Source: Candidatus Saccharimonadota bacterium (lineage in GTDB: Bacteria > Patescibacteriota > Saccharimonadia > Saccharimonadales > AWTP1-31). From it: DNA of 64,000 bases. Positions 1,087 to 26,135 of this stretch are shown here, piece by piece. Within the stretch, counting starts at the first letter, position 1. Each line of letters starts with the position of its first letter. Position numbers and translations under genes: made by a program. The stretch covers positions 38,061-102,060 of the forward strand of contig RXKC01000001.1 of the NCBI GenBank assembly GCA_003962975.1, read 5' to 3'. The notes below the pieces were generated by a model that did no database searches, was not told where the DNA came from, and saw only the letters and a list, made by a program, of their open reading frames with translations.

Positions 1087-1155
1087 AAACGACGAGTGGT
1101 TCTGGTTCCTGAGAAATACAAAACAACAATTCTAACATAATTTTTACGATTGTAA

Positions 1156-2463
<1,308 letters not shown>

Positions 2464-2527
2464 TCATAATCATATCGGCACATGCCGGTCGTGTCTAGGT
2501 ATTGGAGGGGTGATACACTAGATTGGT

Positions 2528-10844: not shown

Positions 10845-12602
10845 TCAAGCTTCGAGAAAGCCACCCGACTGATGATTCCATAGCTCTGCATACTGACCTT
10901 TTTTGGCCAAGAGCTGCTTGTGCGTGCCTTGCTCAATGATTTTTCCGTCATCAATCACAACGATACGATCCATTTTTTGTACGGTACTTAAACGGTGCGC
11001 AATAACCAGGGCAGTACGATCTTGCATGAGTTCCCATAGGGCTTGCTGAATGGCAATTTCAGACTCCGAGTCGAGCGCGCTCGTGGCTTCATCGAGCACC
11101 AGTATAGGCGCATCTTTTAAGATTGCTCTAGCAATGGCTACGCGCTGTTTTTGGCCGCCAGATAGTTTGACGCCACGTTCACCTACTTCAGTGTCATAGG
11201 CCTTTGGCAGTGAAGTAATAAAGCCATGAGCTTGCGCCAGCTTGGCTGCACGTTCGACATCTTTCTTCTTCGCTTCCGGCTGACCATACGCGATGTTCTC
11301 GGCAATTGTGCGATGAAAAAGCAGTGGTTCCTGCGGTACGTAGGCAATAGCTTGTCGCAAGCTTTCTTGTGTAACGTTGGCGATGTTCTGACCGTCAATT
11401 TCAATGGCGCCACCTTGGATGTCCATGAACCTCAGAGCAAGCTTGGTTACGGTTGTTTTGCCACCACCACTTTTACCGACCAGACCAACTTTCTCGCCTG
11501 GTTGAATCGCCAGGTCAAAGTTTGTGAATACAGCGTCTTCCTTGCTAGTGTCATTATAGTGAAAGGTTACATTGTTGAGTGATAGCGCTCCTTTACTGAC
11601 TGTCAAACGAGCCGCATCAGGTGCATCAACTAGTGTGTGAGGTGTATTCATGATGGCCACCATTTCATGAGCATCGGCAAAAACGCGTTCAAGCGCACGC
11701 ACTATGCTGGAAGCGTCCCAGAAAGATCCCGAAAGACGTACCGAGTAAAGCTGGGCGGTAATGAAGACGGCAGGCGCCAGGAAGCCCTGCTGAACGCCGT
11801 AAATGCCATACGCCATGACGGACAAATTCAAAAGAGCCATCATGCCAATAATGACATTGTTGCCATTAATCTGTTTTGCCCATGACACAAATACTGCATC
11901 TCCAGCAGCAACAACTTTCTTTTGGTACGAGCCTAGCTCTTCTTTTTCAGCCGCAAACATTTTTACGGTCATGGCATTAGTAATCATGTCGGCCAGGTGA
12001 GCGGTTTGTTCAGAATATTTTGCTACCGAGATTTTTTGTAATGGAAAACGCTTACGAACCATGATAATTGTTGAACCAGCACCAAGCACAGCGATTGTGA
12101 ACATAACCAGTGCTAGCCCAATGTCATACACGGCAATGGCGGCGCTAGAAATAAACATGATCATCAAGAAGCGGCCAAAGCTTTGGTACATGGTGTCGAT
12201 AAATGTTACATAAGCACTGCCCAGTCTTCCGGCCTGGTTAATGAGGGCACCGCTGTAACTGCGAGCATGAAATTCGTACGACTCATTGACGATGTGCTTT
12301 GCTATATCGGCATGAATTTCTTTGACGGCTGCAACTTCAAGGCGATCAACAGCACTGTTAGATATGCGGTTACATATGATTGCTACAACGCCAGCACCGG
12401 CAATGAGCCAAAGAATATTCGCAAACGATAAGCTTGTTGACTGAGCATTTCCAATTTTTGCTGCTCCCAAACCCAGGATTAGCGGAATCAAAATAACATT
12501 CATGCTGTACTGAATAAATACAAAACAGGCTAGAAAAATATCACGTGGATGTCTCTTGGTATATTTCCAAAAGAAGGAGAGTGTTGCTCGAGTATTTCGC
12601 AT
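10845..12602 (-). CDS. ABC exporter, fused permease/ATPase (third of three)
   Basis: 6-TM domain plus NBD. Walker A GKSGGGKTT, signature LSGGQKQR, Walker B LVLDEATSALD, IAHRLST. Ends HQSGGFLEA. ATG lies 1 nt after the upstream stop. Confidence 0.9.
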   Translation of the reverse strand: MRNTRATLSFFWKYTKRHPRDIFLACFVFIQYSMNVILIPLILGLGAAKIGNAQSTSLSFANILWLIAGAGVVAIICNRISNSAVDRLEVAAVKEIHADIAKHIVNESYEFHARSYSGALINQAGRLGSAYVTFIDTMYQSFGRFLMIMFISSAAIAVYDIGLALVMFTIAVLGAGSTIIMVRKRFPLQKISVAKYSEQTAHLADMITNAMTVKMFAAEKEELGSYQKKVVAAGDAVFVSWAKQINGNNVIIGMMALLNLSVMAYGIYGVQQGFLAPAVFITAQLYSVRLSGSFWDASSIVRALERVFADAHEMVAIMNTPHTLVDAPDAARLTVSKGALSLNNVTFHYNDTSKEDAVFTNFDLAIQPGEKVGLVGKSGGGKTTVTKLALRFMDIQGGAIEIDGQNIANVTQESLRQAIAYVPQEPLLFHRTIAENIAYGQPEAKKKDVERAAKLAQAHGFITSLPKAYDTEVGERGVKLSGGQKQRVAIARAILKDAPILVLDEATSALDSESEIAIQQALWELMQDRTALVIAHRLSTVQKMDRIVVIDDGKIIEQGTHKQLLAKKGQYAELWNHQSGGFLEA

Positions 12603-12603
12603 A

Positions 12604-14427
12604 CTATTCTTCTAAGAAGCCGCCTGATTGATGTTTCCAGAGTTCGGCATATTCACCCTTTTGCTTGAGCAGTGATTCGTGACTACCATCTTCAATAATT
12701 GTACCGTCTTTCATGACTAAAATGCGGTTAAGTTTACGAATCGTACTCAAACGGTGAGCGATCACAATTGTGGTGCGATCTTTCATGAGCCGATCCAAGG
12801 CTTCAGTAATAAGCTTTTCGCTGCGGCTGTCCAGTGCGCTCGTGGCTTCATCGAGAACAAGAATTGGTGCGCGGCTCAGCATAGCTCGGGCAATAGCAAC
12901 GCGCTGTTTTTCTCCACCAGAAAGCTTGACTCCACGTTCACCAACTAATGTGTCATATTGCTCGGGCATGCGTTCAATAAAGTCAGCGGCGTTGGCCATA
13001 CGGGCAGCAGCGTGCACTTCTTCATCAGTGGCATCGGTGCGGCCATAGCGAATGTTGTCGAGCAGCGAACGGTGAAACAGAATCGGTTCTTGCGGCACAA
13101 AAGCAATGTGTGAGCGTAAATCATCCTGCTTAATACTGCTGATATTTTGCCCATCAATGGTAATACTGCCGGCTTGAATATCGGAAAAGCGTAACAGCAA
13201 TCTAGTCAGCGTTGACTTGCCAGAGCCCGAGTGCCCGACCAGGCCAACCTTTTGACCGGCTGGAATATGCAAAGTAAAGTCATCGAATATTTCTCGTTTA
13301 CCGTCGGTGTAGCGAAAATTCATATGGTCAAAAACAATGTCGCCTTTGTTGATGCGAATAGGTTCTGGTTTCTCTGGGTCTTTAACATCAAGTTCTTGGT
13401 CTAGGATCGCTGTCATTTCGCTGGCATCAGCAAATGCTACCGAGGCACGTTCAATGGTTTTAGCGATATTAAATAGACGATCTACAATATTAAATATGTA
13501 TAGCTGAGCGGCTAACACGACGGTCATCCCAACTTGGCCAGTTATCACCATGTGTGCCGAATAGCCAATGTATGCCATCAGAAATATAGCCATGAATGCC
13601 CAACGAATGTTGCGAATTTTAAGATCATAGTTCCAAGAAGCCCTGCGACGTGTGAAGCGATTAAGCGTTGTGTTTGCAAAAGCTTTGTTTTCGGCATCGT
13701 GTCGTCCGAATACTTTCACGGTCAGAATATTGGTAATCACATCGGCGACATGTGCCGTGACTTTAGAATCGGCCTCGGCTGCAGCGCGCGTTAAAGGTGC
13801 TTTACGAATTGTCAGCCACATCATGGTACTTGCAAAAATGAGAGCCCAGACAAAAAGAGCGATGCCGAGAGGCGGTGCAATGAACAGGAGCACAATAGTC
13901 GAAAACAACAGCATGGCTATGGACTGTAGGATTTCAAAGTAAATCAGATCCTCGAGTGTCTCGTACGATTTAAGGAAACGATTAAACTGAGTGACAAGTG
14001 AACCAGTGAAGTTATCGGCAAAAAATCGGAAACTATGAGCTTGGAGTTTTTGCATACCCTTGTGTTCCAGGTCGCGCAAGATCCTTGCTTGTCTATACAG
14101 GTACGTATAGTCGTTAATGCGCCAGAATAGGATCTCTAGCGCCAGTAGCACCAGTAAAAACTTGAAGGTGCCCCAAATGGCACTCGTCGATACGCTATCA
14201 AGATTTGCCAGTTGTTCAAGCATGCGAGCCAAGTAATAGCTGAAGCCAATATTACCGAACAGAATAGCGAGCAGTGGGGAAAATAGAATCACATAAAAGC
14301 TAGGTCGATATTTCAGAGAGGCTTGCAAGTAGTGCCGGAGCGTGGCACGAATTGCGAGGGGGGCGGGCTGGCTAGTCTTCAAGAAATCCTCCGGATTGAT
14401 GTTTCCATAGCTCAGCATATTTACCAC
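12604..14427 (-). CDS. ABC exporter, fused permease/ATPase (second of three)
   Basis: Walker A GHSGSGKST, LSGGEKQR, LVLDEATSALD. Ends HQSGGFLEE. The ATG start overlaps the upstream gene by 56 nt. In-frame TTG at 14382 after GGAGGA is an alternative start. Confidence 0.9.
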   Translation of the reverse strand: MVNMLSYGNINPEDFLKTSQPAPLAIRATLRHYLQASLKYRPSFYVILFSPLLAILFGNIGFSYYLARMLEQLANLDSVSTSAIWGTFKFLLVLLALEILFWRINDYTYLYRQARILRDLEHKGMQKLQAHSFRFFADNFTGSLVTQFNRFLKSYETLEDLIYFEILQSIAMLLFSTIVLLFIAPPLGIALFVWALIFASTMMWLTIRKAPLTRAAAEADSKVTAHVADVITNILTVKVFGRHDAENKAFANTTLNRFTRRRASWNYDLKIRNIRWAFMAIFLMAYIGYSAHMVITGQVGMTVVLAAQLYIFNIVDRLFNIAKTIERASVAFADASEMTAILDQELDVKDPEKPEPIRINKGDIVFDHMNFRYTDGKREIFDDFTLHIPAGQKVGLVGHSGSGKSTLTRLLLRFSDIQAGSITIDGQNISSIKQDDLRSHIAFVPQEPILFHRSLLDNIRYGRTDATDEEVHAAARMANAADFIERMPEQYDTLVGERGVKLSGGEKQRVAIARAMLSRAPILVLDEATSALDSRSEKLITEALDRLMKDRTTIVIAHRLSTIRKLNRILVMKDGTIIEDGSHESLLKQKGEYAELWKHQSGGFLEE

Positions 14428-16150
14428 TTTTCTTTAGCAGTTCGGCATGTGAGCCTTCTTCAAGTATTTTACCGTCATCCATGACGATAATGCGATCCAT
14501 TTTTTGAATCGTACTTAAACGGTGGGCAATCACGATGGTGGTGCGACCTTCCATGAGTTTCCAGAGTGCATCCTGGATCAGGACTTCCGATTCACTGTCC
14601 AGTGCGCTAGTGGCTTCGTCTAGAAGTAGCACTGGCGCATCTTTGAGCATGGCACGAGCAATAGCAACACGCTGACGCTGACCGCCTGAAAGCTTTACGC
14701 CGCGCTCACCGACTAGTGTGTCGTAGCCGTCTGGTAGGTCTTTGATGAACTCGTGTGCATGTGCCATTTCGGCAACTCGCTCAATTTCTGCTTTTGTGGC
14801 GCCAGGCTTGCCATAGGCAATGTTTTCGGCCAAAGAACGGTGAAACAACAGCGGTTCTTGAGGCACATACGAAATGTGTCGTCGCAAGTTGTCTTGCGTT
14901 AGCTTACTAATGTCGTGACCACCAATGCGTATGGTGCCACTGTCTATGTCGGAGTAACGCAGTACTAGACGAGTCAGTGTTGTCTTGCCGGAGCCAGAAT
15001 GGCCAACGAGGCCAACCTTTTCTCCAACTCCAATAGAGAAGTTGAGCTTGTTAAAGAGTGGCTTAGGGCTGCCGTCGTGCGTAAAGGTTACTTTGTCAAA
15101 GTCGAGGTTGCCATTTACAGCTTCAACCTGAAGTGGATCGGCGACATCTTTAACACCAGGCTGTATGTCGAGAATTTCGACCATGTCCTTGGCGTCTCCA
15201 AAAGCACGGTTGTACTGACGGAGAATGTTTTGGAACTCCCATAGACGCATACCAATATTGCCGGTGTATGACACGATCAAGAACAGGGTGGCAATGTCAT
15301 TGCCAAACAACTTGGTGCCAAGTACGGCAATTAATAGAGCGGCAACGCCGATCGAAGTCGTTATAGTACTGGCAAAGATCTCTCGACTGGTTGTGGTGCG
15401 CAGCGACAAATAGCCAGCGTCTGCTACTTTGTTTGATGTTTTAGCAAAGCGAGATTTCTCGTAGTCACCGCGGGCAAAGCTCTTAATAGCCATAATGTTA
15501 GTTATGGCATCAGCCAGCTCACCAGTTTGTTTACTTTGGGCGGTTGCCTCGGCACTGTTGGCGTCCCGGACTGGTCGTGAAAGCTTAATGGTGCCTAGAA
15601 TAAACACCACCGCAAACACCAGCATGGTAACGGCATAGACCGGTACTTTTGGCCCCAGCACTACCATGGTTGCGACTAGGCTAATAATCAGTGTGTATAG
15701 GTTGAATACGGTTGAATCTGCAAAGCGTACATAGGCACCAGTCAGTTTGTTGGTTTGTGAGACTAATGAACCGCTAAAGCGGTTAGCATGGAATGTGGTA
15801 CTCATCGAGAGCAGGTGACTAAAGACGCGTTGGTTAAGATCACGAATGACTCGGTTTTCGAGTGACCAGATCATCCATACATTAAAGCGCCAACCCAGAA
15901 CTCCCCAGACATAGGTACTAATGGCGTACACCAAAATGTAGCCACCAAATGCGCCCCATAAATCGTTGGGGTTGTATCCGCCGCTGCTAATTATTGCTAA
16001 GACACGTGACAGAATGTAGGGGCCAAGAATGTCGCCTAATACAATAGTTATGGGGACGGTTACAAAGAGCGGAAATAGATACCGCTTATAACGAAGAGCA
16101 TGATTCCAAAATAATTGGATAGTTTTTTTACTTGTAGATGCAGTTTTCAT
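14372..16150 (-). CDS. ABC exporter, fused permease/ATPase (first of three)
   Basis: Walker A GHSGSGKTT, LSGGQRQR, LLLDEATSALD, IAHRLST. Ends HQSGGFLED. RBS AGGAGG upstream of ATG 16150. Confidence 0.9.
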   Translation of the reverse strand: MKTASTSKKTIQLFWNHALRYKRYLFPLFVTVPITIVLGDILGPYILSRVLAIISSGGYNPNDLWGAFGGYILVYAISTYVWGVLGWRFNVWMIWSLENRVIRDLNQRVFSHLLSMSTTFHANRFSGSLVSQTNKLTGAYVRFADSTVFNLYTLIISLVATMVVLGPKVPVYAVTMLVFAVVFILGTIKLSRPVRDANSAEATAQSKQTGELADAITNIMAIKSFARGDYEKSRFAKTSNKVADAGYLSLRTTTSREIFASTITTSIGVAALLIAVLGTKLFGNDIATLFLIVSYTGNIGMRLWEFQNILRQYNRAFGDAKDMVEILDIQPGVKDVADPLQVEAVNGNLDFDKVTFTHDGSPKPLFNKLNFSIGVGEKVGLVGHSGSGKTTLTRLVLRYSDIDSGTIRIGGHDISKLTQDNLRRHISYVPQEPLLFHRSLAENIAYGKPGATKAEIERVAEMAHAHEFIKDLPDGYDTLVGERGVKLSGGQRQRVAIARAMLKDAPVLLLDEATSALDSESEVLIQDALWKLMEGRTTIVIAHRLSTIQKMDRIIVMDDGKILEEGSHAELLKKSGKYAELWKHQSGGFLED

Positions 16151-16384: not shown

Positions 16385-17272
16385 GTGAAAAAAGTCATTC
16401 TCTATTACAAGTTTATCCCTGTTAGTGACCCTGCAATTACCATGCGCTGGCAGCGCGAATTGTGTACGCGTTTGCAGCTAACTGGCCGCATTATCATTAG
16501 CCGTCACGGTATTAACGGTACCTTGGGCGGTGATATAGAAAACCTGCGCGAATACAAGCGGGAAATGAACCGCTCGATCCTATTTAAGGACATCATGTAC
16601 AAATGGAGCGACGGAACTGGTAAAGACTTTCCGCGTTTGAGTGTCAAAGTACGCGACGAACTAGTCAGCTTTGGCGCCCCTGACGAAATTCAGGTAGACG
16701 AAAAAGGCGTAGTTGGTGGTGGAAAACATCTCAAGCCCGAAGCTGTACACAAACTCATCGAAGAGCGCGGTGAAGACGTGATCTTTTTTGACGGCCGAAA
16801 CGCCTATGAAGCCGCTGTTGGTAAGTTCAAGGACGCCGTCGTACCTGATACCAAAACAACCCGTGATTTTCTAGCCGAGCTGGAGGGTGATAAATACGAA
16901 GATATTAAAGATAAACCCGTAGTTACGTACTGTACTGGCGGTATTCGTTGTGAGGCACTTAGTGTGCTGATGAAGAATCGAGGCTTTAAAGAGGTCTACC
17001 AAATTGATGGTGGCATTGTGAAGTACGGTGAAAAGTACGGTGATGATGGTCTTTGGGAAGGCAGCTTACACATATTTGACGATCGTATGGCACACCGGTT
17101 TAGTGACAAATCAAAAGACATTGGCGAGTGTGTCCATTGCCAAGGTAAAACCAGTCGCTATATCAATTGTGCCGACAAATCTTGTAACCGACTCGTGCTA
17201 GTGTGCGAAGATTGCACCCAAAAAACACACTGTGCGACGCACCAGACTGCAACTGTAGGCGAGTTGAGTTAG
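16385..17272 (+). CDS. trhO: rhodanese-domain protein, UPF0176/YceA family (tRNA U34 hydroxylase TrhO-like)
   Basis: N-terminal YYKF...GRIIISRHGINGTLGG, rhodanese active-site loop YCTGGIRCE, Cys-rich C-terminal tail. GTG start 7 nt after TATAAT (16372-16377). Confidence 0.8.
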   Translation: MKKVILYYKFIPVSDPAITMRWQRELCTRLQLTGRIIISRHGINGTLGGDIENLREYKREMNRSILFKDIMYKWSDGTGKDFPRLSVKVRDELVSFGAPDEIQVDEKGVVGGGKHLKPEAVHKLIEERGEDVIFFDGRNAYEAAVGKFKDAVVPDTKTTRDFLAELEGDKYEDIKDKPVVTYCTGGIRCEALSVLMKNRGFKEVYQIDGGIVKYGEKYGDDGLWEGSLHIFDDRMAHRFSDKSKDIGECVHCQGKTSRYINCADKSCNRLVLVCEDCTQKTHCATHQTATVGELS

Positions 17273-17295: not shown

Positions 17296-17325
17296 TTGAC
17301 AAACTATACAAATAGGGTATAAAAT
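17296..17325 (+). promoter_or_regulatory. sigma70-type promoter for RNA motif copy A
   Basis: TTGACA (17296-17301), then TATAAA (17318-17323, 16-nt spacer) or TAAAAT (17320-17325, 18-nt spacer). Confidence 0.5.
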
Positions 17326-17353
17326 TGTCAGCACCGTGCTTGTTTCAGGTGTA

Positions 17354-17413
17354 GGCTATGAAATGTGAGTCAGATATGGACGCTTAGCTCACATAGAGCC
17401 ACTAGCGTAACCG
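17354..17413 (+). ncRNA. unclassified structured RNA motif, copy A (60 nt, helix plus pseudoknot)
   Basis: GGC-TAT-GAAAT-GTGAG[loop ..TGGACGCTT..]CTCAC-ATA-GA-GCC then CACTAGCGTAACCG. Loop GGACGCT is complementary to AGCGT-AA-CC in the tail. Both helices covary with copy B at 19516-19575. Confidence 0.6.
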
Positions 17414-17448
17414 AACAGTTTGACACAGGCCAAGATGGTGAGTTTTGA

Positions 17449-17479
17449 CTCCAGTCCCTACATGGGACTGGAGTTTTTT
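17449..17479 (+). terminator. intrinsic terminator after RNA motif copy A
   Basis: Perfect 10-bp stem CTCCAGTCCC/GGGACTGGAG, 5-nt loop, T6 tract (17474-17479). The opposite strand has no T tract, so it is plus-strand specific. Confidence 0.8.
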
Positions 17480-17487
17480 ATGCCCGT

Positions 17488-19383
17488 TTAGTGCTTGATG
17501 CCGCCGCGCAGTAAGCCACCCCATTCAACTAAGGTGAAGCCGTTACGTTTTGGTGCAGTAAATTTCTGAGGAGTAATGTCGATCGGACTATTTAAGCCTT
17601 CAAAGTCCAAGAAGGTGCGAATGGTAGTTTGTGGTTGCTGGCTGAGAGTTAGTGGGGCTAGCTGGTTAAGCTGTGTTGTGGTTAGCCAAGAGATACGTAC
17701 GTAGGGAGTGCTAGGAATATGAGGTTGCCAGAAGTCCATGAACTCTGTAATCTCACGGCCGCGCAGGCCTTGGGCTGCTAATTGGTCGCGCATTGTTGCA
17801 TCTGCTTGTGCGGTGGGTACTACGGTACCGCTGGTAATCTCAGGGTACGTGCCATATCCATAGCCTTCCCAGAAGAGTGATCCATATGCTTTGTTTTGGT
17901 AGCGTAGATTACCATTTGGCTCGGCAGTAACATTCTTCCAGCCACCTTTTGGATAGTTTGGTTCAGAGATGACGACGTCAGCTCCAACTGCTACATCAAG
18001 CATTGTTTTCTTGGTGGGATATAGGTAGATAACGGGTTTTGCACAACCTCCGCGTATAAACAAGTCATCCCGCAGGAAGACAACATATTCGCCGAGGCCA
18101 TTTTTGGCAAGGAAGTAGCCATGCTTATCTGTAAGTTGCTGAACAGTTAAGTTTTTCAGGCTGTCGTCATTAGTGCTTTCGCCAGTCATGTAGTCTTTCT
18201 CAAAGAGTTCTACGACTAATGGATGGGTGTTGGGCAGCTGGTATAGAGTTTGGCCGCCTGCTGTCTTGCCGGCGGCAACAACCATAGAATCCGTTACATC
18301 TTTTGCGGACACATAGCCACCGGCTGATCCACAGCCACTACCAGCGCTATAGTACGCCGAGGTATTCTTTTCGCCAGTTGTCCAGTTGTAGGCTACTTTG
18401 TCCGTCTTGCTAGCTATCTCTCCAGCGGGCTGATAAGGAATAGCGTATACGCCGTTTACAGTCCCATAGTACGCGTACACTTTATAGGTTGCGTTGTCGC
18501 TGATCAGCGCTTTGTAGTATGATTTGCCATCTTTATCTGCGAGCTTATCGGGTAAACCATGTTTTAACTCACCCCAGAATGAGCCACGAACACTGTTCAG
18601 TCCGCCAAGTATAAAGTAACCAGTTGCACCTTCTGACAAAGACATTTTTTGCCCAGCAATTTCAACTTCCTTTGGAAAATCGAGACCAGGTAGTTTAGTA
18701 GTAGTATCGACATCCACGCCAGCCGCTAGAGCATCTTTAAAACGTTTCAGCGTTGTTGCTTCGTAGTCATCAGTTTTTATCGCATAGATACCAGCGCCAG
18801 TTGATTGAAGGGCAAGCACGGTATATGTTCGATCACCATTATCGACGATGGTAAAGTCGCCGCTGTCCATGCCAAGCCCATAGGTGACCACAATGATCTT
18901 GCCGCCCGACTTGGTACTGCCAACCTGATGGTAGGTGAGCTCATCGGTTGTCACGCTAGGCTCGCACCCAGTGGTATAACTTGGTGGATCACAGTTTTCT
19001 TCACCTAGAATATTTAGGTTGGCCAAGAATGTGAACGGTGTATACGTCTGTGCTGACTCAAGGTACGTAACATCAGGAATTTCTTTGGCTACTGGTTTAG
19101 CTGTGTTTGCTTGGGGCTTGGGTGTAGGTTCAGGTGTTTTCTCTCGCCCAAAAACGAGCCAGCCAGCGATAGCCAGAATAATAACAGTGACTACTCCAAC
19201 GATAATCCACTGTTTTTTACTTAGTTGTATACGTCGTTTCTTCTTATCTGTTTGTACTTGATTATCATTGTTTTCAGAGGTTAGGTCGGTGTTGCTGTTA
19301 TCGCTTTCTAATGTCGTATCATCGGTGTTTTCGGTCAGGTCTGGTGAGATCACTTCTTCTGCGGGTTTGTCTTGTTTTGGCAT
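17488..19383 (-). CDS. large bitopic membrane/surface protein, hypothetical
   Basis: ORF track start is 19419. AAGGAG lies 7 nt before ATG 19383, so I prefer that start (631 aa). Acidic disordered N-terminus, one TM (WIIVGVVTVIILAIAGWLVFG), about 540-aa ectodomain with no motif I recognise. Confidence 0.6.
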   Translation of the reverse strand: MPKQDKPAEEVISPDLTENTDDTTLESDNSNTDLTSENNDNQVQTDKKKRRIQLSKKQWIIVGVVTVIILAIAGWLVFGREKTPEPTPKPQANTAKPVAKEIPDVTYLESAQTYTPFTFLANLNILGEENCDPPSYTTGCEPSVTTDELTYHQVGSTKSGGKIIVVTYGLGMDSGDFTIVDNGDRTYTVLALQSTGAGIYAIKTDDYEATTLKRFKDALAAGVDVDTTTKLPGLDFPKEVEIAGQKMSLSEGATGYFILGGLNSVRGSFWGELKHGLPDKLADKDGKSYYKALISDNATYKVYAYYGTVNGVYAIPYQPAGEIASKTDKVAYNWTTGEKNTSAYYSAGSGCGSAGGYVSAKDVTDSMVVAAGKTAGGQTLYQLPNTHPLVVELFEKDYMTGESTNDDSLKNLTVQQLTDKHGYFLAKNGLGEYVVFLRDDLFIRGGCAKPVIYLYPTKKTMLDVAVGADVVISEPNYPKGGWKNVTAEPNGNLRYQNKAYGSLFWEGYGYGTYPEITSGTVVPTAQADATMRDQLAAQGLRGREITEFMDFWQPHIPSTPYVRISWLTTTQLNQLAPLTLSQQPQTTIRTFLDFEGLNSPIDITPQKFTAPKRNGFTLVEWGGLLRGGIKH

Positions 19384-19459
19384 GTCACTGCTCCTTGTAT
19401 GATTGTTTGCTTTAAGCATAACCCCAAAAGCGTCAAGGGTAAACTAGACACGTAAAGTA

Positions 19460-19488
19460 CTTGACATAAATTAAACTAAGTACTATAA
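19460..19488 (+). promoter_or_regulatory. consensus sigma70 promoter for RNA motif copy B and downstream operon
   Basis: TTGACA (19460-19465), exact 17-nt spacer, TATAAT (19483-19488). Confidence 0.7.
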
Positions 19489-19515
19489 TACTGTCACCAA
19501 AAAAGTTTTGGTTGT

Positions 19516-19575
19516 CGACTATGAACTTGTACTCGTATTTGGACGCTTGAGTACTAGGGAGTCACTAGCGTAACC
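19516..19575 (+). promoter_or_regulatory. unclassified structured RNA motif, copy B (candidate riboswitch/attenuator aptamer)
   Basis: GAC-TA-TGAACTT-GTACTC[loop GTATTTGGACGCTT]GAGTAC-TA-GGGA-GTC then CACTAGCGTAACCG. Same loop and tail as copy A, with compensatory helix changes. Confidence 0.6.
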
Positions 19576-19600
19576 GGGCAACAGAACCTCTCTCTTCATG

Positions 19601-19630
19601 AGCGGTTTGGAGCCACCCAAACCGCTTTTT
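19601..19630 (+). terminator. intrinsic terminator inside operon leader
   Basis: 9-bp stem GCGGTTTGG/CCAAACCGC, 6-nt loop, T6 tract (19625-19630), 40 nt upstream of ATG 19670. Confidence 0.75.
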
Positions 19631-19669
19631 TGGTTGATCGATGTAAATCTTTCATCCAAGGAGGATGCA

Positions 19670-20350
19670 ATGACAAATCTAGGCCCTGAGTTCGTAGATC
19701 CAATGGACGCCTTTCCAGTCGGACAACCAGTTATTGGTGTTGATGTGAATGAAGTACAGTTTGTGCGCGACTTATATGTAGTCGGAGCAATTAGTGTGGA
19801 CACTGCCGGCACAGAACAAAGCCGTTATTATCCTTACCGATCTGCAGAGTTTGGCGGTTTGCTATTTGAGCCGATCGATACTCGTGAACCAAGTAATGAA
19901 TATTTACTAACTCCAGACTCCTACAATGATCGCGTCAGAAACGAAGGGCCGGTGATTCGAACTTCATTTGCAGATGGAAATCTGGAAGACCGATATGCAG
20001 TGCTACTACGTCCTAATGGTGGCCAGCCTTTTGCCGGCTATATCTTACGTTATGATTCTGCGCCACATGTTCGTATTGCCGAGCAACTGCCGCTCGTGCA
20101 GCGAGAAGTGCCAACCGGCTTACGCCAATTTGGCGAACGACGAGCTGCCATTAAAAATAATCGTGCTCTTGCTGAACGCGAGCAAGCAAAGCGATACCGC
20201 CGACAGCGAGCAAGTGATCCGCTTGGCCACACCGAAGTACTTGACCGTATGGCCGGTCTTTTCTATGGGGAAGTAACCCGACTGCAGGGTGGACCGGTTC
20301 GAATAGGTATGCCACCAGAAGCTCGTAAAGAACACGAAGAAGAGGACTAG
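19670..20350 (+). CDS. hypothetical soluble protein (first gene of three-gene operon)
   Basis: ORF track starts at 19598, inside the terminator. AAGGAGGA (19658-19665) precedes ATG 19670. 226 aa, no TM, basic Arg-rich C-terminal helix. No motif recognised. Confidence 0.6.
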   Translation: MTNLGPEFVDPMDAFPVGQPVIGVDVNEVQFVRDLYVVGAISVDTAGTEQSRYYPYRSAEFGGLLFEPIDTREPSNEYLLTPDSYNDRVRNEGPVIRTSFADGNLEDRYAVLLRPNGGQPFAGYILRYDSAPHVRIAEQLPLVQREVPTGLRQFGERRAAIKNNRALAEREQAKRYRRQRASDPLGHTEVLDRMAGLFYGEVTRLQGGPVRIGMPPEARKEHEEED

Positions 20351-20358
20351 GAGCTGTC

Positions 20359-23300
20359 ATGAGCACGACCAACTATGTGTGTGGTGGAATGTATGAGCCT
20401 GAACGACGTCCTGATATGAGTGACGTGGTGCCTTTTAAGACCGCCACATTGCTGCGATCACCCGAGTATCCCGAAGGTGTTCAAGCGATTACGTATCATG
20501 ACGGTAATCAAGAATTTGTACCATTACCCCATGTTTCGGTAGCAGAGCCCATGCCTCGACCGAGCGAGCTAGAACCAAAATGGAAGGATGGTTCAAGAGG
20601 ATCTGATACACCTGAGCTAACGTTTGACGTAGCGCTCCCTTCGGATTTGTTCTATAGGCTTATCTCGAGTGGAGAACTTAGTCCGGATTCACGACAGATT
20701 CCTTCGCCAACTCCGCGGCCTAAGGTTGTAATGCCCGCGATGTCTCGACCGGCTCAAGCGCAACGAAATCAGACCCAGTCGCCACAGAAACACCCCAAAA
20801 AAGAACGCCGTGAAGAGCCAATTGCACAAAGTCCCCAGTCAGAACCACCAAAAACCGGACCGAGCTTTAGAGAAAATCTACGAGATATAGTATTCCTAGA
20901 TATTCTTGGCTTGCCGGCCGGCGATAGCCCACTGGAAGTCTATAAAACTGGCTTCTGGGAAATTGGTCAGAGCATAAAAACTGGTGTACCAACAGTGTTA
21001 GGGGCAGTGCATAACATTACGCAGGGCACCGCCGAGAGTGCTCGGACAATGCGCGATCGTGTCACACCGCATGTGCGACGCACTGCAGCCGTAGCTACTG
21101 TTGCAGCCGCTGCTACCGTCGGATCAGTTATAGCAACGGGACAGATGGCTGATGTGCCAGAAAAGAACTTTGCAAAACCAGTTGTCATGATGCCTGTCGA
21201 ACTCACAAGTGTGACGGTGCCTTTGCAAAAAACCGAAGATCTTAACGCACTGGCTGACAGTTTACAGATTGGCCCTGAAGAAATGGCTATGCTGGCGCAA
21301 GCTGCAGGCATTAGTCCTGGGGAGCTAACTGAACCAGCCGAGTTAACACTTGAACTGCGCACTTCTGAAGTTGAGCTGTCTAGCCCAGCAACTGCTGATC
21401 AAATTGCTGAACGATTTGGTCTTACCCAAACGCTTATAGAGGCAGCCAATCCAGGCAGTACTGACGAGGCTCGTATGTCCTTCCGTATTCCTGGCCGAAT
21501 GGTTTTTGCGACGAGCGTTGAACAGCCAAATGTTTCAAGTGTTGCTCAAGTCATTGGAGTAGACCCAGCGCTAGCTCAATCTCTAAATACTGCTAATGAC
21601 GGACTAATTGCGTTACCCGCGCATGAGGAGGTTGACGCCTCGGCAGAAAAAGCTGTGGCCATGGCATTACTTGCTCCAATTCAACCAGAAGATGCACCAA
21701 TCGAAACAGTACCCGAAACGACAGTTCCACCAACAACTGCCGCTCCTGCAACCACGGTACCGGCTGCCGAAGCTGTTCAGGCACAGCCTGGCGACCCGGC
21801 ACTTGAACTATCACCACCACCGAGCATGCCTGAAAAAAATCCAGAACAGATGACAGATACCGAGTATATGCAGTGGCTGGCAAGCGAAGTCAATCCAACT
21901 GTTGCTGATTTGTTTGCGCTACAAGTAGATACCAGCCGCATGGGTGCATTTGATAGTGAACTCAGTGGCACCCGTATTCAACCCACGAAGTTTGTTGGTC
22001 ATTGGACAGCAGGTTTGTACGAAAACGGTGTTGATCAGTTTGTGAGTTCGATCAAAGGTCGCGACGGTGACTGCTGCAACGTGACTTACTTCATGGATCT
22101 GGACGGACAAATCTATCAGTTTGCTGACCCGAATATCATGACCAGCCATGCCAAGGGTGCAAATAGCTTTAGCCAGGGTGTTGAAATCGAAGCCCGCGGC
22201 CTACGCGATTATGGCCCACAACAAATGCGCAACTTTGTCTTGCTAGCTTACCGGTTCATGCGTGAGCAGAACATACCTATTGAACGCCCTAACTTTACCG
22301 GCCACGAAGAAGTAGATGTCATTCATGCGCATCGAGGCTGGAAGTCAGATATGCCTACCGAACTAGTCGACATGCTTTTCCCTAAGCTAAAAGCCCTGGA
22401 TGATCTTGTGAAAGCCCAAGATGCTCAAGATCAAGCAGTTGTCGACACAATTGCTCCTGAAGTTCACGAGCTTTCATCACAAGAACGATACGACGCCTTA
22501 ATCGACATGTTGCTAGCCGAAATCTCTTCTCATGAAGGCGGTATCGACTCCGTAAATACTGGCGATGCTGGTGATACAAAAGTCGGTAGCGAGCGGTACA
22601 ACCAAATTCTTGGCGGCAGATTGCTTTCTGAATTAACAATTGCAGAAGTCATGGAACTCCAGGCGCAAGATTTACTGTTTGCCGTGGGTTACATGCAGTT
22701 TATACCAGACACTCTAAAGGGTGCGGTCCAGGTTACTGGTATAGACACTGCTCGCAAGTTTGATCTTGTAACACAAAAAGAGTTAGCTATTAAGTACCTT
22801 ATATTCGGTAAGCGAAAGCACCTGAAGGGGTATATTAACGGCGAGAATTATTCTCTTGATTCTGCAACACAAGACCTGTGTCAAGAATTTGCCAGTATGC
22901 CATGCCCAAATGGTGAAGGTTTCTACGATGGTGACTCGGCAGGCAACAATGCCAAAAATGGCCTGCAACGATTACCACATATACGCGGTGTGCTCATTAT
23001 GCTGCGTACGGCTCAACAAGACCGGATTGCCGATATGCACGCAGCAGCACTTGCCGAGTCGGAAGCTCTAAAAACTCTGCCCGCACCAACGACCGAGCCA
23101 GCGCCATTGCCCGCACCTACGGATACTACTCCGCCAACTACTGAGGTTGTTCCGTTGCCGGCACCAGCTGACACAACTACAACCACACCAGCGTCAACTA
23201 CTTCGACCACACTGAAATCAACAACCACAACCAGCACACCAGCCGACCAGCTGATACTACGTACTGCGCTTTCAGAACCAGGTGCTCAGTCAGCCGAGGC

Positions 23301-23466
23301 AAGCTGGTTGCCAGTTGAAACGGCCAAACAAGTTGTAACTGTCTATCTCGGTTCCGAGCAAGCCGCTGAAGAATGGCTGGATACCCAGATATTTGCCCAA
23401 GATGGTGATGGCAGTAACACGCGCGTGTTTGTCGATCCCGCAAAACTAACCCCACAAGGAGAATAA
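20359..23466 (+). CDS. bitopic multidomain cell-wall hydrolase: LysM-like repeats, amidase_2-like domain, lysozyme-like domain, Thr/Pro linkers
   Basis: RBS AGGAG. About 240-aa cytoplasmic Pro-rich N-terminus, one TM (AAVATVAAAATVGSVIATG), degenerate LysM-like repeats. Amidase_2/T7-lysozyme-like motifs (VGHWTAG, TSHAKGANSFSQGVEIEA, TGHEEV...KSDMP). Lysozyme-like motifs (SHEGGIDSV..D.GDTKVG, AVGYMQFIPDT). T/P-rich tracts (PLPAPTDTT / PLPAPADTT). Confidence 0.7.
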   Translation: MSTTNYVCGGMYEPERRPDMSDVVPFKTATLLRSPEYPEGVQAITYHDGNQEFVPLPHVSVAEPMPRPSELEPKWKDGSRGSDTPELTFDVALPSDLFYRLISSGELSPDSRQIPSPTPRPKVVMPAMSRPAQAQRNQTQSPQKHPKKERREEPIAQSPQSEPPKTGPSFRENLRDIVFLDILGLPAGDSPLEVYKTGFWEIGQSIKTGVPTVLGAVHNITQGTAESARTMRDRVTPHVRRTAAVATVAAAATVGSVIATGQMADVPEKNFAKPVVMMPVELTSVTVPLQKTEDLNALADSLQIGPEEMAMLAQAAGISPGELTEPAELTLELRTSEVELSSPATADQIAERFGLTQTLIEAANPGSTDEARMSFRIPGRMVFATSVEQPNVSSVAQVIGVDPALAQSLNTANDGLIALPAHEEVDASAEKAVAMALLAPIQPEDAPIETVPETTVPPTTAAPATTVPAAEAVQAQPGDPALELSPPPSMPEKNPEQMTDTEYMQWLASEVNPTVADLFALQVDTSRMGAFDSELSGTRIQPTKFVGHWTAGLYENGVDQFVSSIKGRDGDCCNVTYFMDLDGQIYQFADPNIMTSHAKGANSFSQGVEIEARGLRDYGPQQMRNFVLLAYRFMREQNIPIERPNFTGHEEVDVIHAHRGWKSDMPTELVDMLFPKLKALDDLVKAQDAQDQAVVDTIAPEVHELSSQERYDALIDMLLAEISSHEGGIDSVNTGDAGDTKVGSERYNQILGGRLLSELTIAEVMELQAQDLLFAVGYMQFIPDTLKGAVQVTGIDTARKFDLVTQKELAIKYLIFGKRKHLKGYINGENYSLDSATQDLCQEFASMPCPNGEGFYDGDSAGNNAKNGLQRLPHIRGVLIMLRTAQQDRIADMHAAALAESEALKTLPAPTTEPAPLPAPTDTTPPTTEVVPLPAPADTTTTTPASTTSTTLKSTTTTSTPADQLILRTALSEPGAQSAEASWLPVETAKQVVTVYLGSEQAAEEWLDTQIFAQDGDGSNTRVFVDPAKLTPQGE

Positions 23467-23467
23467 G

Positions 23468-24574
23468 ATGAACGATCGAATCATACCTACAGAAAGTGTT
23501 GATGCAGAAACTGGCTTTGGCCGCTACGATATAGTTGCCGATGTTGCCCAGGGTGATTTTGCGCCTGAAGTGTCGACCGACATGGTAGGTTCAGACGCTG
23601 CTTACGATACTGCTGAACAGCGACAACAGGAGCTTTTGGTTGTGCGTACTGCTGAACCAGTACTCGAATCACCAGCATATGCTCCATCTCGTCGTGAACG
23701 ACGTCGTGCTAACAAACTGGCAAATCCAAAACCACCACGCCGACCTGGAAGAATTCGCAGGGGTGCAAGATTGATAGGATATGGCGGTGCAGCTGGGCTC
23801 ATGGCTCTTGGAGCTCTGCAGCTAGCTGATATTGCTGGTTGGGACTTTGATATTTTGCCAGGTGATGGCACAAAAGTAGAGGCAAGTGTCGGTGACGTAG
23901 AGACTACAGTCGAAGAGTGGCACGGGCTGGTTGCAGCTAAACTCAGTTCAACAGTTGACCTAGACATTACGCGTAACCTTAATCATGTGTTTCCTATCCC
24001 TGACTGTAATATTAGTGTCCACGAAGATAACCTTTCGCTAAGTGGCCTCTTAACAGTTGGATTGTCGGGCATTCAGGTTGAGACAGTCGGAGATCAAGTA
24101 ACTGCTACTGTGTCAGCGTTTGAGGTGCCACAACTTGGACTTCCGCTTGATGATCCTGTTTTGCCAGAAGGCTCAGGCACCAGTGCGTGTGTGCAAAAAG
24201 ATGGCGAAGAAAAGAAGGATAGTCCAGAGAATGTTCCAGTTTTGATAGCAGGGGAATTACTCGAGGCCTCAAGCCAACGTATTGGTGAGTGCGTTATCAA
24301 TCGAGCCAACGACGAAGGCAGTGACGTACAACGCTTATTGTCTACGAGCATTGCGCAGACCATCGCTACTATCCGAGGTATTGACGCTGCGCAAGTGGAT
24401 GTTGTCTTTGACTTCGAAGATAGTGACGAAGGTAAGAAAGCAATTAAAGATGCCAAAGAACGCATTATTGCCAAACAAAAAGAAGAAACCGACGCCAAGG
24501 TAACCATCGATACTGTTGCTGTAGAGGACTGCGAGTTGCACGAGATTCAAGCCGTACTCGCACCAGCAGCCTAA
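23468..24574 (+). CDS. hypothetical bitopic membrane protein (third gene of operon)
   Basis: AAGGAG RBS. ATG lies 1 nt after the upstream stop. Arg-rich juxtamembrane segment, one TM (LIGYGGAAGLMALGALQLADIAGW), acidic ectodomain. No motif recognised. Confidence 0.6.
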   Translation: MNDRIIPTESVDAETGFGRYDIVADVAQGDFAPEVSTDMVGSDAAYDTAEQRQQELLVVRTAEPVLESPAYAPSRRERRRANKLANPKPPRRPGRIRRGARLIGYGGAAGLMALGALQLADIAGWDFDILPGDGTKVEASVGDVETTVEEWHGLVAAKLSSTVDLDITRNLNHVFPIPDCNISVHEDNLSLSGLLTVGLSGIQVETVGDQVTATVSAFEVPQLGLPLDDPVLPEGSGTSACVQKDGEEKKDSPENVPVLIAGELLEASSQRIGECVINRANDEGSDVQRLLSTSIAQTIATIRGIDAAQVDVVFDFEDSDEGKKAIKDAKERIIAKQKEETDAKVTIDTVAVEDCELHEIQAVLAPAA

Positions 24575-24620: not shown

Positions 24621-26135
24621 GTGAACGAAATACTTGCCAAGAAATTAAAGGATCTACCCAAAGAGCCTGGTGTTTATTTTCATAAGGATGCTAAGGGCGA
24701 GATTATCTATGTGGGTAAGGCAGCCATTTTACGCAACCGTGTGCGCCAGTATTTTCAGAAATCTCGTTTACGCGATCCCAAAACTGACCTACTGGTAAGC
24801 GAAATTGTTGATACCGATTGGCAGGTGGTCGAAAGCGAATTCGACGCACTTTTCTTAGAGGCCGAGATGATTCGTCGCTACATGCCGCGTTACAACATTC
24901 TGCTGCGTGACGACAAAAGCCAGACCTTTGTGCGCATAGATTTTAAAAGTCAGTACCCAACGGTAACCATGACTCGTCGGCCGCTTGATGACGGCGCAAA
25001 TTATTATGGACCTTTTCTTAGTACCATTGCTGTGCGCCGGGCGCTCAAGTATTTACGAAAAGTTTTCCCATATTCGACGCACACAGTTATGCCTAAGCGA
25101 GCTTGCTTGCTGGCGCACTTGCATTTGTGCCCTGGGCCAGAAACGGGCGAGCTTGATGAAAAAGATTACAAAACGAATCTCAAAAAATTAGTCCGCGTCT
25201 TGCAAGGGCAAAAGGGCTCGATTATTCGAGAAATCGAAAAAGATATGCAGGCAGCAAGCGCCGCTCATAACTTTGAGTTGGCTGCCAAAAGACGTAATCA
25301 AATAACGGCCCTCAAAGACCTAGATCGCCGAGTATTATTTAGTGACAAAGAATTCCTAGACTTGTCGAAAGATCATGCGCTTATAGAATTAACCGAAGTG
25401 CTTGGCTTGGCAAAAGTGCCAAAGCGAATCGAGGGCTACGACATATCGCATATGAGTGGCACTGACGTGGTGGCCAGTATGGTTGTGTTTACCAATGGTG
25501 CGGCCGATAAAGCCAATTACCGCAAGTTTAAATCGCACAAGCAAAATAACGACGACTTCGAGCATATGCGCGAAACTATGACACGACGTTTCAGCGAAAA
25601 GAACATCAAACAGTGGGGTATGCCCGAACTGGTCTTGATCGATGGTGGTAAGGGTCAGCTTGAAGCTGCCTTGTCAGTCATTCGCGAAAAAGAGCTAAAG
25701 CTCCCCGTAATTGGGATTGCCAAAAAGCACGAAGAAATCGTTATTCGTAATGATTGGCCAAATACCGATTTGCAGCCGCAAGTCGTGACTCGTTTACGCG
25801 GCATATTACGTGAAAGTGACGACTTTACCTTAGTTGATCTGCCAAATTCAAGTAATGTTATAAAGCTTTTGCAGCGCATTCGTGATGAGTCACACCGCTT
25901 CGCGGTGAGTTACCACAGTGTTCTAAAAGTAAAACGCCAGACAGCCAGTATTCTCGATGATGTACCAGGCATTGGCCCGGCTACTCGCAAGAAACTGATT
26001 CGAACTTTTGGCAGCCTACGTGGTGTCCAGCAAGCTCGTCGTGACGAACTAGAACAAATCCTCGGACCTGTGAAAGCGACTGTCCTGCGCCAGTATTTGC
26101 GCGCCGCCAACAAAGAGCAAGACAAAACTAGCTAG
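24621..26135 (+). CDS. uvrC: excinuclease ABC subunit C
   Basis: GIY-YIG N-terminus (PGVYFHKDAKGEIIYVGKA...RYMPRYNILL), UVR motif, RNaseH-like endonuclease region, C-terminal HhH (IPGIGPATRKKL). GTG start 6 nt after TATACT (24609-24614). Compact at 504 aa. Confidence 0.93.
   Translation: MNEILAKKLKDLPKEPGVYFHKDAKGEIIYVGKAAILRNRVRQYFQKSRLRDPKTDLLVSEIVDTDWQVVESEFDALFLEAEMIRRYMPRYNILLRDDKSQTFVRIDFKSQYPTVTMTRRPLDDGANYYGPFLSTIAVRRALKYLRKVFPYSTHTVMPKRACLLAHLHLCPGPETGELDEKDYKTNLKKLVRVLQGQKGSIIREIEKDMQAASAAHNFELAAKRRNQITALKDLDRRVLFSDKEFLDLSKDHALIELTEVLGLAKVPKRIEGYDISHMSGTDVVASMVVFTNGAADKANYRKFKSHKQNNDDFEHMRETMTRRFSEKNIKQWGMPELVLIDGGKGQLEAALSVIREKELKLPVIGIAKKHEEIVIRNDWPNTDLQPQVVTRLRGILRESDDFTLVDLPNSSNVIKLLQRIRDESHRFAVSYHSVLKVKRQTASILDDVPGIGPATRKKLIRTFGSLRGVQQARRDELEQILGPVKATVLRQYLRAANKEQDKTS

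Follow-up and report, generated by a model that had tools for sequence, protein, structure and literature searches.

Class-II cyclic di-GMP (c-di-GMP-II) riboswitches, which make up the Rfam family RF01786 and include the Clostridium acetobutylicum RNA of structure 3Q3Z and Cdi2_1 to Cdi2_4 of Clostridioides difficile, are composed of the helices P1, P2 and P3 and a kink-turn, carry a pseudoknot between the apical loop and the 3' tail with the AA of an AACCG motif bulged out, and occupy the 5' leaders of surface or cell-wall protein genes together with a coupled intrinsic terminator (PMC11477304; PMC7288161). The present analysis concerns a 64-kb stretch of a Candidatus Saccharibacteria genome (contig RXKC01000001.1; the whole stretch is called the window), which holds two RNA motifs of this architecture, one of them in the leader of an operon with a predicted peptidoglycan hydrolase gene. 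On the basis of their sequence, we assigned both motifs with high confidence to the aptamers of class-II c-di-GMP riboswitches. They differ from the known members in their Saccharibacteria/Patescibacteria host, in a P1 that is long and conserved in sequence, in a pseudoknot core that reads ACGC/GCGU and not GCAC/GUGC, and in a separate terminator whose strands mimic those of P1, implying an OFF and not an ON switch.

The whole window was scanned against Rfam 15 at the gathering thresholds and the scan returned two matches other than tRNAs, both to RF01786 and both spanning model positions 1-84 of 84. Copy 2 (19505-19588) scored 56.3 bits (E-value 8.5e-10) and copy 1 (17343-17425) 55.5 bits (E-value 1.4e-9), the gathering score being 53.5 bits and the E-values referring to the full 64-kb window. 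The RF01786 threshold was also passed by 11 relatives in Saccharibacteria-type loci. Our own covariance model R1, built from an alignment of homologs, found exactly two aptamers in the window, with scores of 78.2 bits for copy 2 and 70.3 bits for copy 1. Their elements are located as follows.

19505-19588, + strand: predicted c-di-GMP-II aptamer, copy 2 (RF01786, model R1 and covariation)
19505-19515 with 19578-19588, + strand: copy 2, P1, 11 base pairs (bp), from the Rfam alignment
19517-19519 with 19561-19563, + strand: copy 2, P2, GAC/GTC, read from the sequence
19520-19524 and 19559-19560, + strand: copy 2, kink-turn, assigned at sequence level
19526-19533 with 19550-19557, + strand: copy 2, P3
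19541-19547 with 19567-19571 and 19574-19575, + strand: copy 2, pseudoknot of loop GGACGCT with AGCGT and CC
17343-17425, + strand: predicted c-di-GMP-II aptamer, copy 1 (RF01786 and model R1)
17354-17356 with 17398-17400, + strand: copy 1, P2, GGC/GCC
17378-17384 with 17404-17408 and 17411-17412, + strand: copy 1, pseudoknot

The apical loop of copy 2, UGGACGCUU, holds GGACGCU, which is complementary to the AGCGU-AA-CC tail, and a GTACTC/GAGTAC helix lies within the P3 region (19529-19534 with 19549-19554). Both window copies contain this pseudoknot of P3 loop (UGGNNNNUU) and 3' tail (NNNN-AA-CC), in which GGACGCU pairs with AGCGU..CC; the copies share loop and tail while their helices differ compensatorily (GGC/GCC and GTGAG/CTCAC in copy 1). 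At sequence level, the kink-turn of copy 2 consists of a UAU bulge and tandem G.A/A.G pairs formed by GA 19523-19524 opposite GA 19559-19560, and the same arrangement occurs in copy 1.

Homologs were collected with a loop and tail pattern that left the helices free and made two pseudoknot positions independently degenerate on each side, using one genome per species. The scan returned at least 119 related stretches, and the matches listed came from Candidatus Saccharibacteria, other Patescibacteria, Trueperaceae/Deinococcota, many Bacillota, Rubrobacteraceae and Anaerolineae. Both degenerate positions were Watson-Crick paired in 133 of the 137 matches listed, a property of 4 of the 16 combinations that the pattern allowed. 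A set of 124 distinct aptamers was aligned with MAFFT, and the Rfam structure and the pseudoknot were mapped onto the alignment from the window sequence. Paired cells amounted to 81.7% in the proposed register compared with 36-42% in all slid registers, and the covariation score was 0.514 compared with 0.12-0.17, a value reached in 0 of 500 shuffles. Double-sided changes were observed in 11/11 pairs of P1 and 8/8 pairs of P3, and P2 was 93% paired. The two free pseudoknot pairs covaried as well (AU 64 and GC 57; CG 117 and UA 5), with 99.3% of cells paired; the remaining pseudoknot positions, set by the search pattern itself, are uninformative. The kink-turn positions of the 5' strand, neither of them set by the pattern, were G in 121/124 and A in 124/124 aptamers. 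RNAalifold applied to ten full units recovered P1, P2 and P3. By these values and by its Rfam E-values, the motif lies well outside chance expectation.

These data substantiated a good part of the initial annotation, which had described a 60-nucleotide (nt) motif with GAC/GTC and GTACTC/GAGTAC helices, a loop-tail pseudoknot and a second copy with identical loop and tail and compensatory helices, and had taken it for a selected RNA structure. The two helices proved to be P2 and P3, with most coordinates shifted by 1 nt, the pseudoknot was confirmed by covariation across the 124 aptamers, the second copy is visible in the sequence, and the proposed check of recurrence and covariation gave a positive answer for P1, P2, P3 and the pseudoknot alike. 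The 60-nt motif turned out to be the core of an 84-nt aptamer whose P1 had been overlooked, and the supposed TA/TA step is no helix, as it falls in the internal loop of the kink-turn. The motif had further been called unclassified, with a significant match to a known Rfam family named beforehand as the refuting result; since such a match was obtained with RF01786, at full length and above the gathering score in both copies, this claim falls, and the suggested ligands (cell-wall precursors, nucleotides) give way to c-di-GMP through the identity of the family.

Copy 2 would belong to a complete transcription-attenuation riboswitch, unit 2, made up of promoter, 9-nt leader, 84-nt aptamer, terminator and operon, in which the loop-to-tail pseudoknot would form the ligand pocket. 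The parts outside the aptamer are listed below.

19461-19489, + strand: predicted sigma-70-type promoter, TTGACA-17-TATAAT, 12/12 consensus positions
19496-19505, + strand: 5' leader segment Z (ACCAAAAAAG), fully complementary to 19625-19634
19600-19631, + strand: predicted intrinsic terminator with stem GAGCGGTTTGG/CCAAACCGCTT, loop AGCCAC and T-run
19625-19634, + strand: Z' (CTTTTTTGGT), spanning the U-tract together with the terminator stem base before it and the 3 nt after it
19658-19665, + strand: predicted ribosome-binding site AAGGAGGA, with the ATG at 19670

Transcription is predicted to start near A19496, and TTGACA promoter-like boxes were found at the same relative position in relatives. 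The terminator hairpin, whose stem covers 19600-19627 with the T-run following, has a free energy of about -16 kcal/mol; its sequence AGCGGTTTGG...CCAARCCGC recurs in 10 related units, among which two of the stem pairs show compensatory changes. As a consensus scan returned no promoter-like site between the terminator and ATG 19670, expression of the operon should need readthrough of the terminator. Here too the earlier description was largely upheld: the promoter (placed 1 nt off), the intrinsic terminator behind the aptamer, the lack of a promoter before the ATG, the exact complementarity of the leader to the U-tract region and the view of a riboswitch-like leader depending on readthrough were all recovered, and the label hydrolase operon is fair because of the amidase domain in the 1035-amino acid (aa) protein of the operon and because homologs of this protein lie directly behind the riboswitch elsewhere. 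Ten units, the window's own among them, are alike and are termed type-2 (L-numbers, used below, designate related loci). They share a P1 of UUUGGUUGU with GRCAACNAAACC, a terminator reading AGCGGUUUGG...CCAARCCGCUUUU and an A-rich leader.

Copy 1 belongs to a second unit, unit 1, located 2.1 kb from unit 2 with an oppositely oriented gene between them.

17296-17325, + strand: promoter-like site, TTGACA-18-TAAAAT, 11/12 consensus positions
17447-17481, + strand: strong predicted intrinsic terminator, 12-bp stem, free energy about -22 to -25 kcal/mol, T6
17488-19419, - strand: convergent gene, a 643-aa open reading frame (ORF) for a predicted membrane-anchored protein

The ORF list holds no + strand ORF between the unit 1 terminator and the convergent gene, an absence that the initial annotation had overlooked while correctly recognising the second copy. 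The terminator ends at 17481, 7 nt before the convergent stop codon (17488-17490); metagenome gene calls suggest that the true start of this gene likely yields a protein of 631 aa. Since the opposite gene lies between the units, readthrough of unit 1 would be antisense to the 643-aa gene, whose 3' end faces unit 1 and makes it a candidate antisense target. A tentative reading, to which we attach somewhat less than even credence, is that copy 1 (17296-17481) constitutes a stand-alone riboswitch-derived small RNA or an antisense regulator of the convergent gene, whose response to c-di-GMP would then be opposite in sign to that of the hydrolase operon. This reading is favoured by the promoter-like site of its own, the strong terminator and the missing + strand ORF, and by the fact that such an ORF-less unit with a conserved promoter box recurs in L111, L115, L127/L132 and L039, the box TTGACAA...TAGGGTATAAAAT of unit 1 itself being found in L111, L115, L127 and L039. 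The ORF-less units have in common a long leader-closed P1 and, in the leader, a CACC paired with the GGUG immediately 5' of the terminator. No U-rich terminator of the minus-strand gene was detected near unit 1, and in L054 (29-1186, - strand) a 385-aa protein, 40% identical to the C-terminal ~200 aa of the 643-aa protein, is encoded in an operon downstream of two tandem class-II units, that is, under sense control. Copy 1 also meets the convergent 3' end in the manner expected of antisense riboswitches, pointing into it from within 500 nt, as judged from position alone, and of the riboswitch families it is that of c-di-GMP for which antisense placement is reported to be most pronounced (PMC9943018).

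A described case of this kind is the Listeria B12 riboswitch with AspocR; copy 1 resembles it in pointing into a convergent 3' end and differs from it in being recognised by position alone and in that the corresponding unit of sister genomes precedes a second riboswitch. In L111, L115 and L127 the ORF-less unit indeed stands directly upstream of a type-2 unit on the same strand, which has its own promoter-like site, and this speaks against a regulator of the convergent gene, as do the 0-3 terminator nt captured in L111 and L115, where no conserved alternative structure was found. Because of this sister-genome arrangement the antisense placement may be secondary, and copy 1 could equally be the displaced first stage of a tandem, split by a gene insertion or inversion in the window lineage; L058 and L078 have no unit 1. 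Tandem riboswitches are approached by the relatives that carry two class-II aptamers in series, whereas the window units are separated by 2.1 kb and an opposite gene, with a promoter-like site before each. The copy 1 hairpin is probably not a bidirectional terminator serving the convergent gene, because the minus strand continues with CAAAACTC and has no U-tract. A Pseudomon-1/ErsA match covering 17385-17489 was weak (20 bits, the gathering score being 50; E-value 0.62) and was dismissed as due to the terminator hairpin alone. On the minus strand, a CTGACA-17-TATAGT sequence (17303-17331, 10/12 consensus positions) overlaps the unit 1 promoter and is directed into the rhodanese-like gene from its 3' end; it may be there by chance.

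In order to evaluate the direction of switching, the position of the terminator relative to the aptamer was surveyed in 18 Patescibacteria units and in 71 mostly-Bacillota units from the matches listed. In 43 of the 71, the AACCG tail and the P1 3' strand themselves constitute the terminator 5' half (AACCGRCC...GGYCGGTTTTT), as is characteristic of the ON design, whereas terminator and aptamer shared bases in 0 of the 18 Patescibacteria units, 12 of which have a separate terminator more than 20 nt past AACCG and 6 of which have no terminator. The terminator of unit 2 begins 12 nt past the end of P1 and thus shows no overlap of the ON type.

Classical transcriptional OFF switches of the Bacillota, such as the SAM-I and purine riboswitches, alternate the P1 3' strand between P1 and an antiterminator. 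Unit 2 would work along similar lines, as a ligand-stabilised P1 would free the terminator 5' half and a free P1 3' strand would capture it; it differs from those systems in its aptamer class and in a 5' leader complementary to the terminator 3' half and the U-tract. In the type-2 units the P1 3' strand resembles the terminator 3' half and the P1 5' strand the terminator 5' half, and as a consequence the four strands can exchange partners. In unit 2, complementarity would allow the terminator 5' half to pair instead with the P1 3' strand and the aptamer tail, and the terminator 3' half and U-tract to pair with the leader and the P1 5' strand. The minimum free energy (MFE) fold of the nascent RNA, ending at the terminator loop, bound 8-12 nt of the terminator 5' half to the tail/P1 3' region in 10/10 type-2 units, and forcing the aptamer in this fold cost 6-12 kcal/mol in the ten units, an expense that pseudoknot formation and tight ligand binding could plausibly pay. 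The duplex of leader and P1 5' strand with the terminator 3' half, U-tract and following bases was worth -10.7 to -18.9 kcal/mol (z -2.5 to -6 against shuffles). Complementarity of leader and tail was present in 10/10 related units and stronger within than across loci (permutation p ~0.002). In the window and in L007, L016, L048, L055, L058, L078, L111, L115 and L133, the 5' end of the leader matches the last terminator stem base, the U-tract and the 3-4 nt beyond it. The flanks of this leader:U-tract helix covaried, reading ACC:GGU in the window, UACAA:UUGUA in L078 and AAUC:GAUU in most of the other units. The pseudoknot-free MFE fold of the full leader likewise paired 19496-19505 with the U-tract. 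In L039, L129 and L130, P1 reads GGCUGU/ACAGCC and the terminator GCUCGGC/GCCGAGC, and the complementarity of P1 3' strand and terminator 5' half is still kept.

On this model, the terminator halves would be captured by the P1 and leader strands when the ligand is lacking, allowing readthrough, whereas c-di-GMP would lock the pseudoknot and P1, free both terminator halves and stop transcription. As all the alternative pairings need an open P1, we infer an OFF switch, and consider it rather probable, from folding energies and comparison, that c-di-GMP promotes termination ahead of the hydrolase operon. Several points weigh against this direction. The evidence for it is thermodynamic or comparative in kind; pairing of the P1 3' strand with the terminator 5' half is weak in some loci (-5 kcal/mol in L115, z often above -2); and cross-locus controls were worse by just 1-2 kcal/mol, a small margin explained by the conservation of the sequences. 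The unconstrained full-length MFE fold makes the terminator regardless, and pseudoknot-free MFE folding fails to reproduce the aptamer, so that thermodynamics alone cannot settle the choice between ON and OFF. When the aptamer was enforced, the terminator 5' half was still partly paired in the nascent fold of several loci. Capture of a terminator 3' half is moreover a kinetically poor way of antitermination. Finally, all characterised class-II transcriptional switches of Clostridioides difficile are ON switches (PMC11477304).

The same wiring in unit 2, with c-di-GMP preventing termination and inducing the hydrolase operon, is in our view unlikely but deserves serious consideration. Besides the Clostridioides difficile precedent, it can draw on the leader CCAAA of the window unit, which is able to pair with the terminator UUUGG when the aptamer is enforced in the nascent fold and could in principle impede the hairpin once P1 has formed. 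This leader:terminator-5' pairing is, however, just 5 bp long, every sizeable alternative pairing uses free P1 or tail strands and would be abolished by the ligand, and the sharing of bases between terminator and aptamer that marks 43/71 of the other units occurs in 0/18 from Patescibacteria.

A column-based covariation analysis of the leader:U-tract helix failed, because the leader is rich in indels, and the helix is absent from the RNAalifold result; the permutation test on duplex energies was used instead. This helix could serve to complete the fold in its antiterminated state, to lengthen the terminator by way of a three-way junction once P1 is in place, or to shield the RNA ends, and we know of no standard counterpart or role for a pairing of 5' leader and terminator U-tract. 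A metagenome pattern scan yielded just 8 loci, of which half were near-identical to the window, and the type-1 and type-2 statistics refer to about 10 and 5-8 units, respectively. The near-identical population variants L001-L006, L128 and L131 showed no informative single-nucleotide polymorphisms in either unit.

The nucleotides expected to contact the ligand were then compared with those of 3Q3Z. Window positions were mapped onto its numbering through what we take to be the crystallised sequence, checked for consistency against the published list of contacts. This list comprises A13, A14, U37, G39, U60, A61 and C68-A74 (PMC7288161). With the mapping so assumed, the equivalents of U37, G39, A61, A69, A70, C71, C72 and G73 are all present in both copies; the A14:U60 equivalent is G:C, as in most members, and the C68 equivalent is U with a compensating pseudoknot partner. 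At the A13 equivalent, copy 1 has A and copy 2 has C (A80/G20/C16/T7 in the family); at the A74 equivalent they have A and G, respectively (G78/A44). As judged from the alignment, the contact positions appear to be conserved or to vary inside the natural range of the family.

Three observations nevertheless count against the assignment to the class-II c-di-GMP riboswitches. Both window scores exceed the RF01786 gathering score by just 2-3 bits; copy 2 has C at the ligand-contacting A13 equivalent, though 16/124 members are alike; and, by regular-expression search alone, no ORF of at least 100 aa with a GG[DE]EF motif was present in the 64-kb window. Equally, by regular expression alone, no such ORF of at least 120 aa was present in ~160 kb of related loci, and a regular-expression search for GGDEF, EAL and HD-GYP gave nothing convincing. 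Diguanylate cyclases have been reported in metagenome-assembled genomes (MAGs) of ultra-small groundwater organisms (PMC9938205). A class-II-like aptamer of altered specificity, recognising another cyclic or linear dinucleotide as in the c-di-GMP-II-GAG and c-di-GMP-II-GCG models of the same clan, would agree with scores close to the threshold, with the C and G of copy 2 at the A13 and A74 equivalents and with the lower-scoring matches of its clan relatives to the same stretch; it appears very improbable, as the canonical RF01786 is the top scorer of clan CL00127 at both sites, the two positions vary freely in the family, copy 1 keeps the canonical A at each of them, and the core AACCG, UGG and A61 equivalent are unchanged. 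A new, unclassified class of riboswitch or protein-dependent attenuator with a ligand other than those known is practically ruled out by the full-length matches of both copies above the curated RF01786 threshold, the departure of its pseudoknot from the Rfam consensus (ACGC/GCGU for GCAC/GUGC) being a compensatory swap found in many members, and kink-turn, P1-P3 and pocket nucleotides all agreeing with c-di-GMP-II.

The operon behind unit 2 comprises the following genes.

19670-20350, + strand: 226-aa ORF, starting with the ATG behind the strong ribosome-binding site
20359-23466, + strand: 1035-aa protein with a predicted N-acetylmuramoyl-L-alanine amidase domain (residues 542-652; Pfam PF01510, Amidase_2, E-value 5.8e-10)
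23468-24574, + strand: 368-aa protein, conserved partner of the hydrolase gene

The 226-aa ORF has no family match and no counterpart in the related loci, and the exact protein was found solely on metagenome contigs of the same gene order; these comparisons suggest that it entered the regulated operon as a lineage-specific insertion. The 226-aa, 368-aa and 643-aa proteins had no relatives in Pfam, NCBIfam or PDB sequences. The 1035-aa protein also gave weak matches to the PDB amidases 6srt and 6ssc, the rest of this ~1000-aa chain being without a recognised domain. It is the conserved target of the type-2 units: homologs of the 1035-aa and 368-aa proteins follow the riboswitch in five loci besides the window, those of the 1035-aa protein standing immediately behind it in L133, L078, L055, L058 and L127. 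The L133 homolog (964-3696) has Amidase_2, while in that of L127 (6332-9463) an SLT lytic transglycosylase domain replaces the amidase. All window ORFs were compared by tblastn with named genome loci, and the rhodanese-like protein (16385-17272) and UvrC (24621-26135) were 78-85% and 83-87% identical, respectively, to loci of Saccharibacteria/Saccharimonadota MAGs. The shared gene order runs from ABC transporters through rhodanese, riboswitch unit(s), the ~1000-aa protein and a ~350-aa protein to UvrC, and it is by this synteny that the window was assigned to Candidatus Saccharibacteria. In the window, the ABC transporter array consists of three consecutive fused genes at 10845-16150 on the - strand (ABC_membrane + ABC_tran; 585, 607 and 592 aa), the second ORF overlapping the third as listed, and it also lies beside the riboswitch locus in L111, L078, L048 and L132.

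The RNA class is already known, and standard Rfam annotation finds both copies; its use in the Saccharibacteria phylum and the wiring of the terminator appear undescribed. Full-text literature searches returned no paper tying Saccharibacteria or the Candidate Phyla Radiation to natural or c-di-GMP riboswitches, the mentions of riboswitches for these groups being synthetic or heterologous tools. The interest of the locus, which is modest, lies in the phylum, in the conserved association with a giant peptidoglycan hydrolase and in an expression platform that appears to depart from the class-II ON switch of the textbooks. Patescibacteria live as obligate epibionts and are poorly understood; to our knowledge almost nothing is known about their regulation. 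A riboswitch before a ~1000-aa protein with swappable amidase and lytic transglycosylase domains offers a testable link from c-di-GMP to wall hydrolysis in Saccharibacteria, where such hydrolysis could serve host attack, attachment or division.

A wider and, taken as a whole, rather doubtful proposal is that Saccharibacteria have rewired the class-II aptamer into a four-strand-exchange OFF platform, with the extreme 5' end of the transcript paired to the terminator 3' half and U-tract, and, in addition, into ORF-less c-di-GMP-responsive antisense or small-RNA units. If true, the two window units would give reciprocal c-di-GMP control of the giant peptidoglycan hydrolase operon and the convergent surface-protein gene, and in an obligate epibiont a second messenger would thereby be linked to attack on the cell wall or its remodelling; the OFF logic and the ORF-less units together would widen the range of expression platforms known for class II. 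As native ligand-responsive parts, the aptamers could moreover be of use in genetic tools for cultivated Saccharibacteria.

Other arrangements were observed among the relatives. In L115 (61-146), L127 (1898-1986 and 6133-6221) and L111 (1051-1139), R1 detected aptamers at 64-70 bits that lie below the RF01786 gathering score, suggesting that standard annotation would miss part of the class-II repertoire of Saccharibacteria; several tandem partners were picked up by R1 alone. Two class-II aptamers stand 110-210 nt apart on one strand in L111, L115, L127 and L054 and closer together in L046, L051 and L104; in L046 (6516-6734), L051 (6999-7227), L104 (1342-1572), L019 and L090, which come from other Patescibacteria and MAGs, the pairs are ~45-60 nt apart with apparently no terminator between, and these closely spaced pairs may be cooperative tandem aptamers. 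In L054 (~2575-2665, - strand) the P1 3' strand GGCATTG is directly followed by TTTTTTG, so that a ligand-stabilised P1 may itself be the terminator stem in a compact OFF design. A terminator-less sub-type is represented by L115 (251-390), L127 (1898-2045) and L016 (- strand, 6546-6634), with a ribosome-binding site and an ORF of 466-489 aa, assigned to no family, within 40-60 nt, a closeness that suggests translational control. The copy 2 aptamer is most similar to this terminator-less sub-type, including the unusual C at the A13 equivalent.

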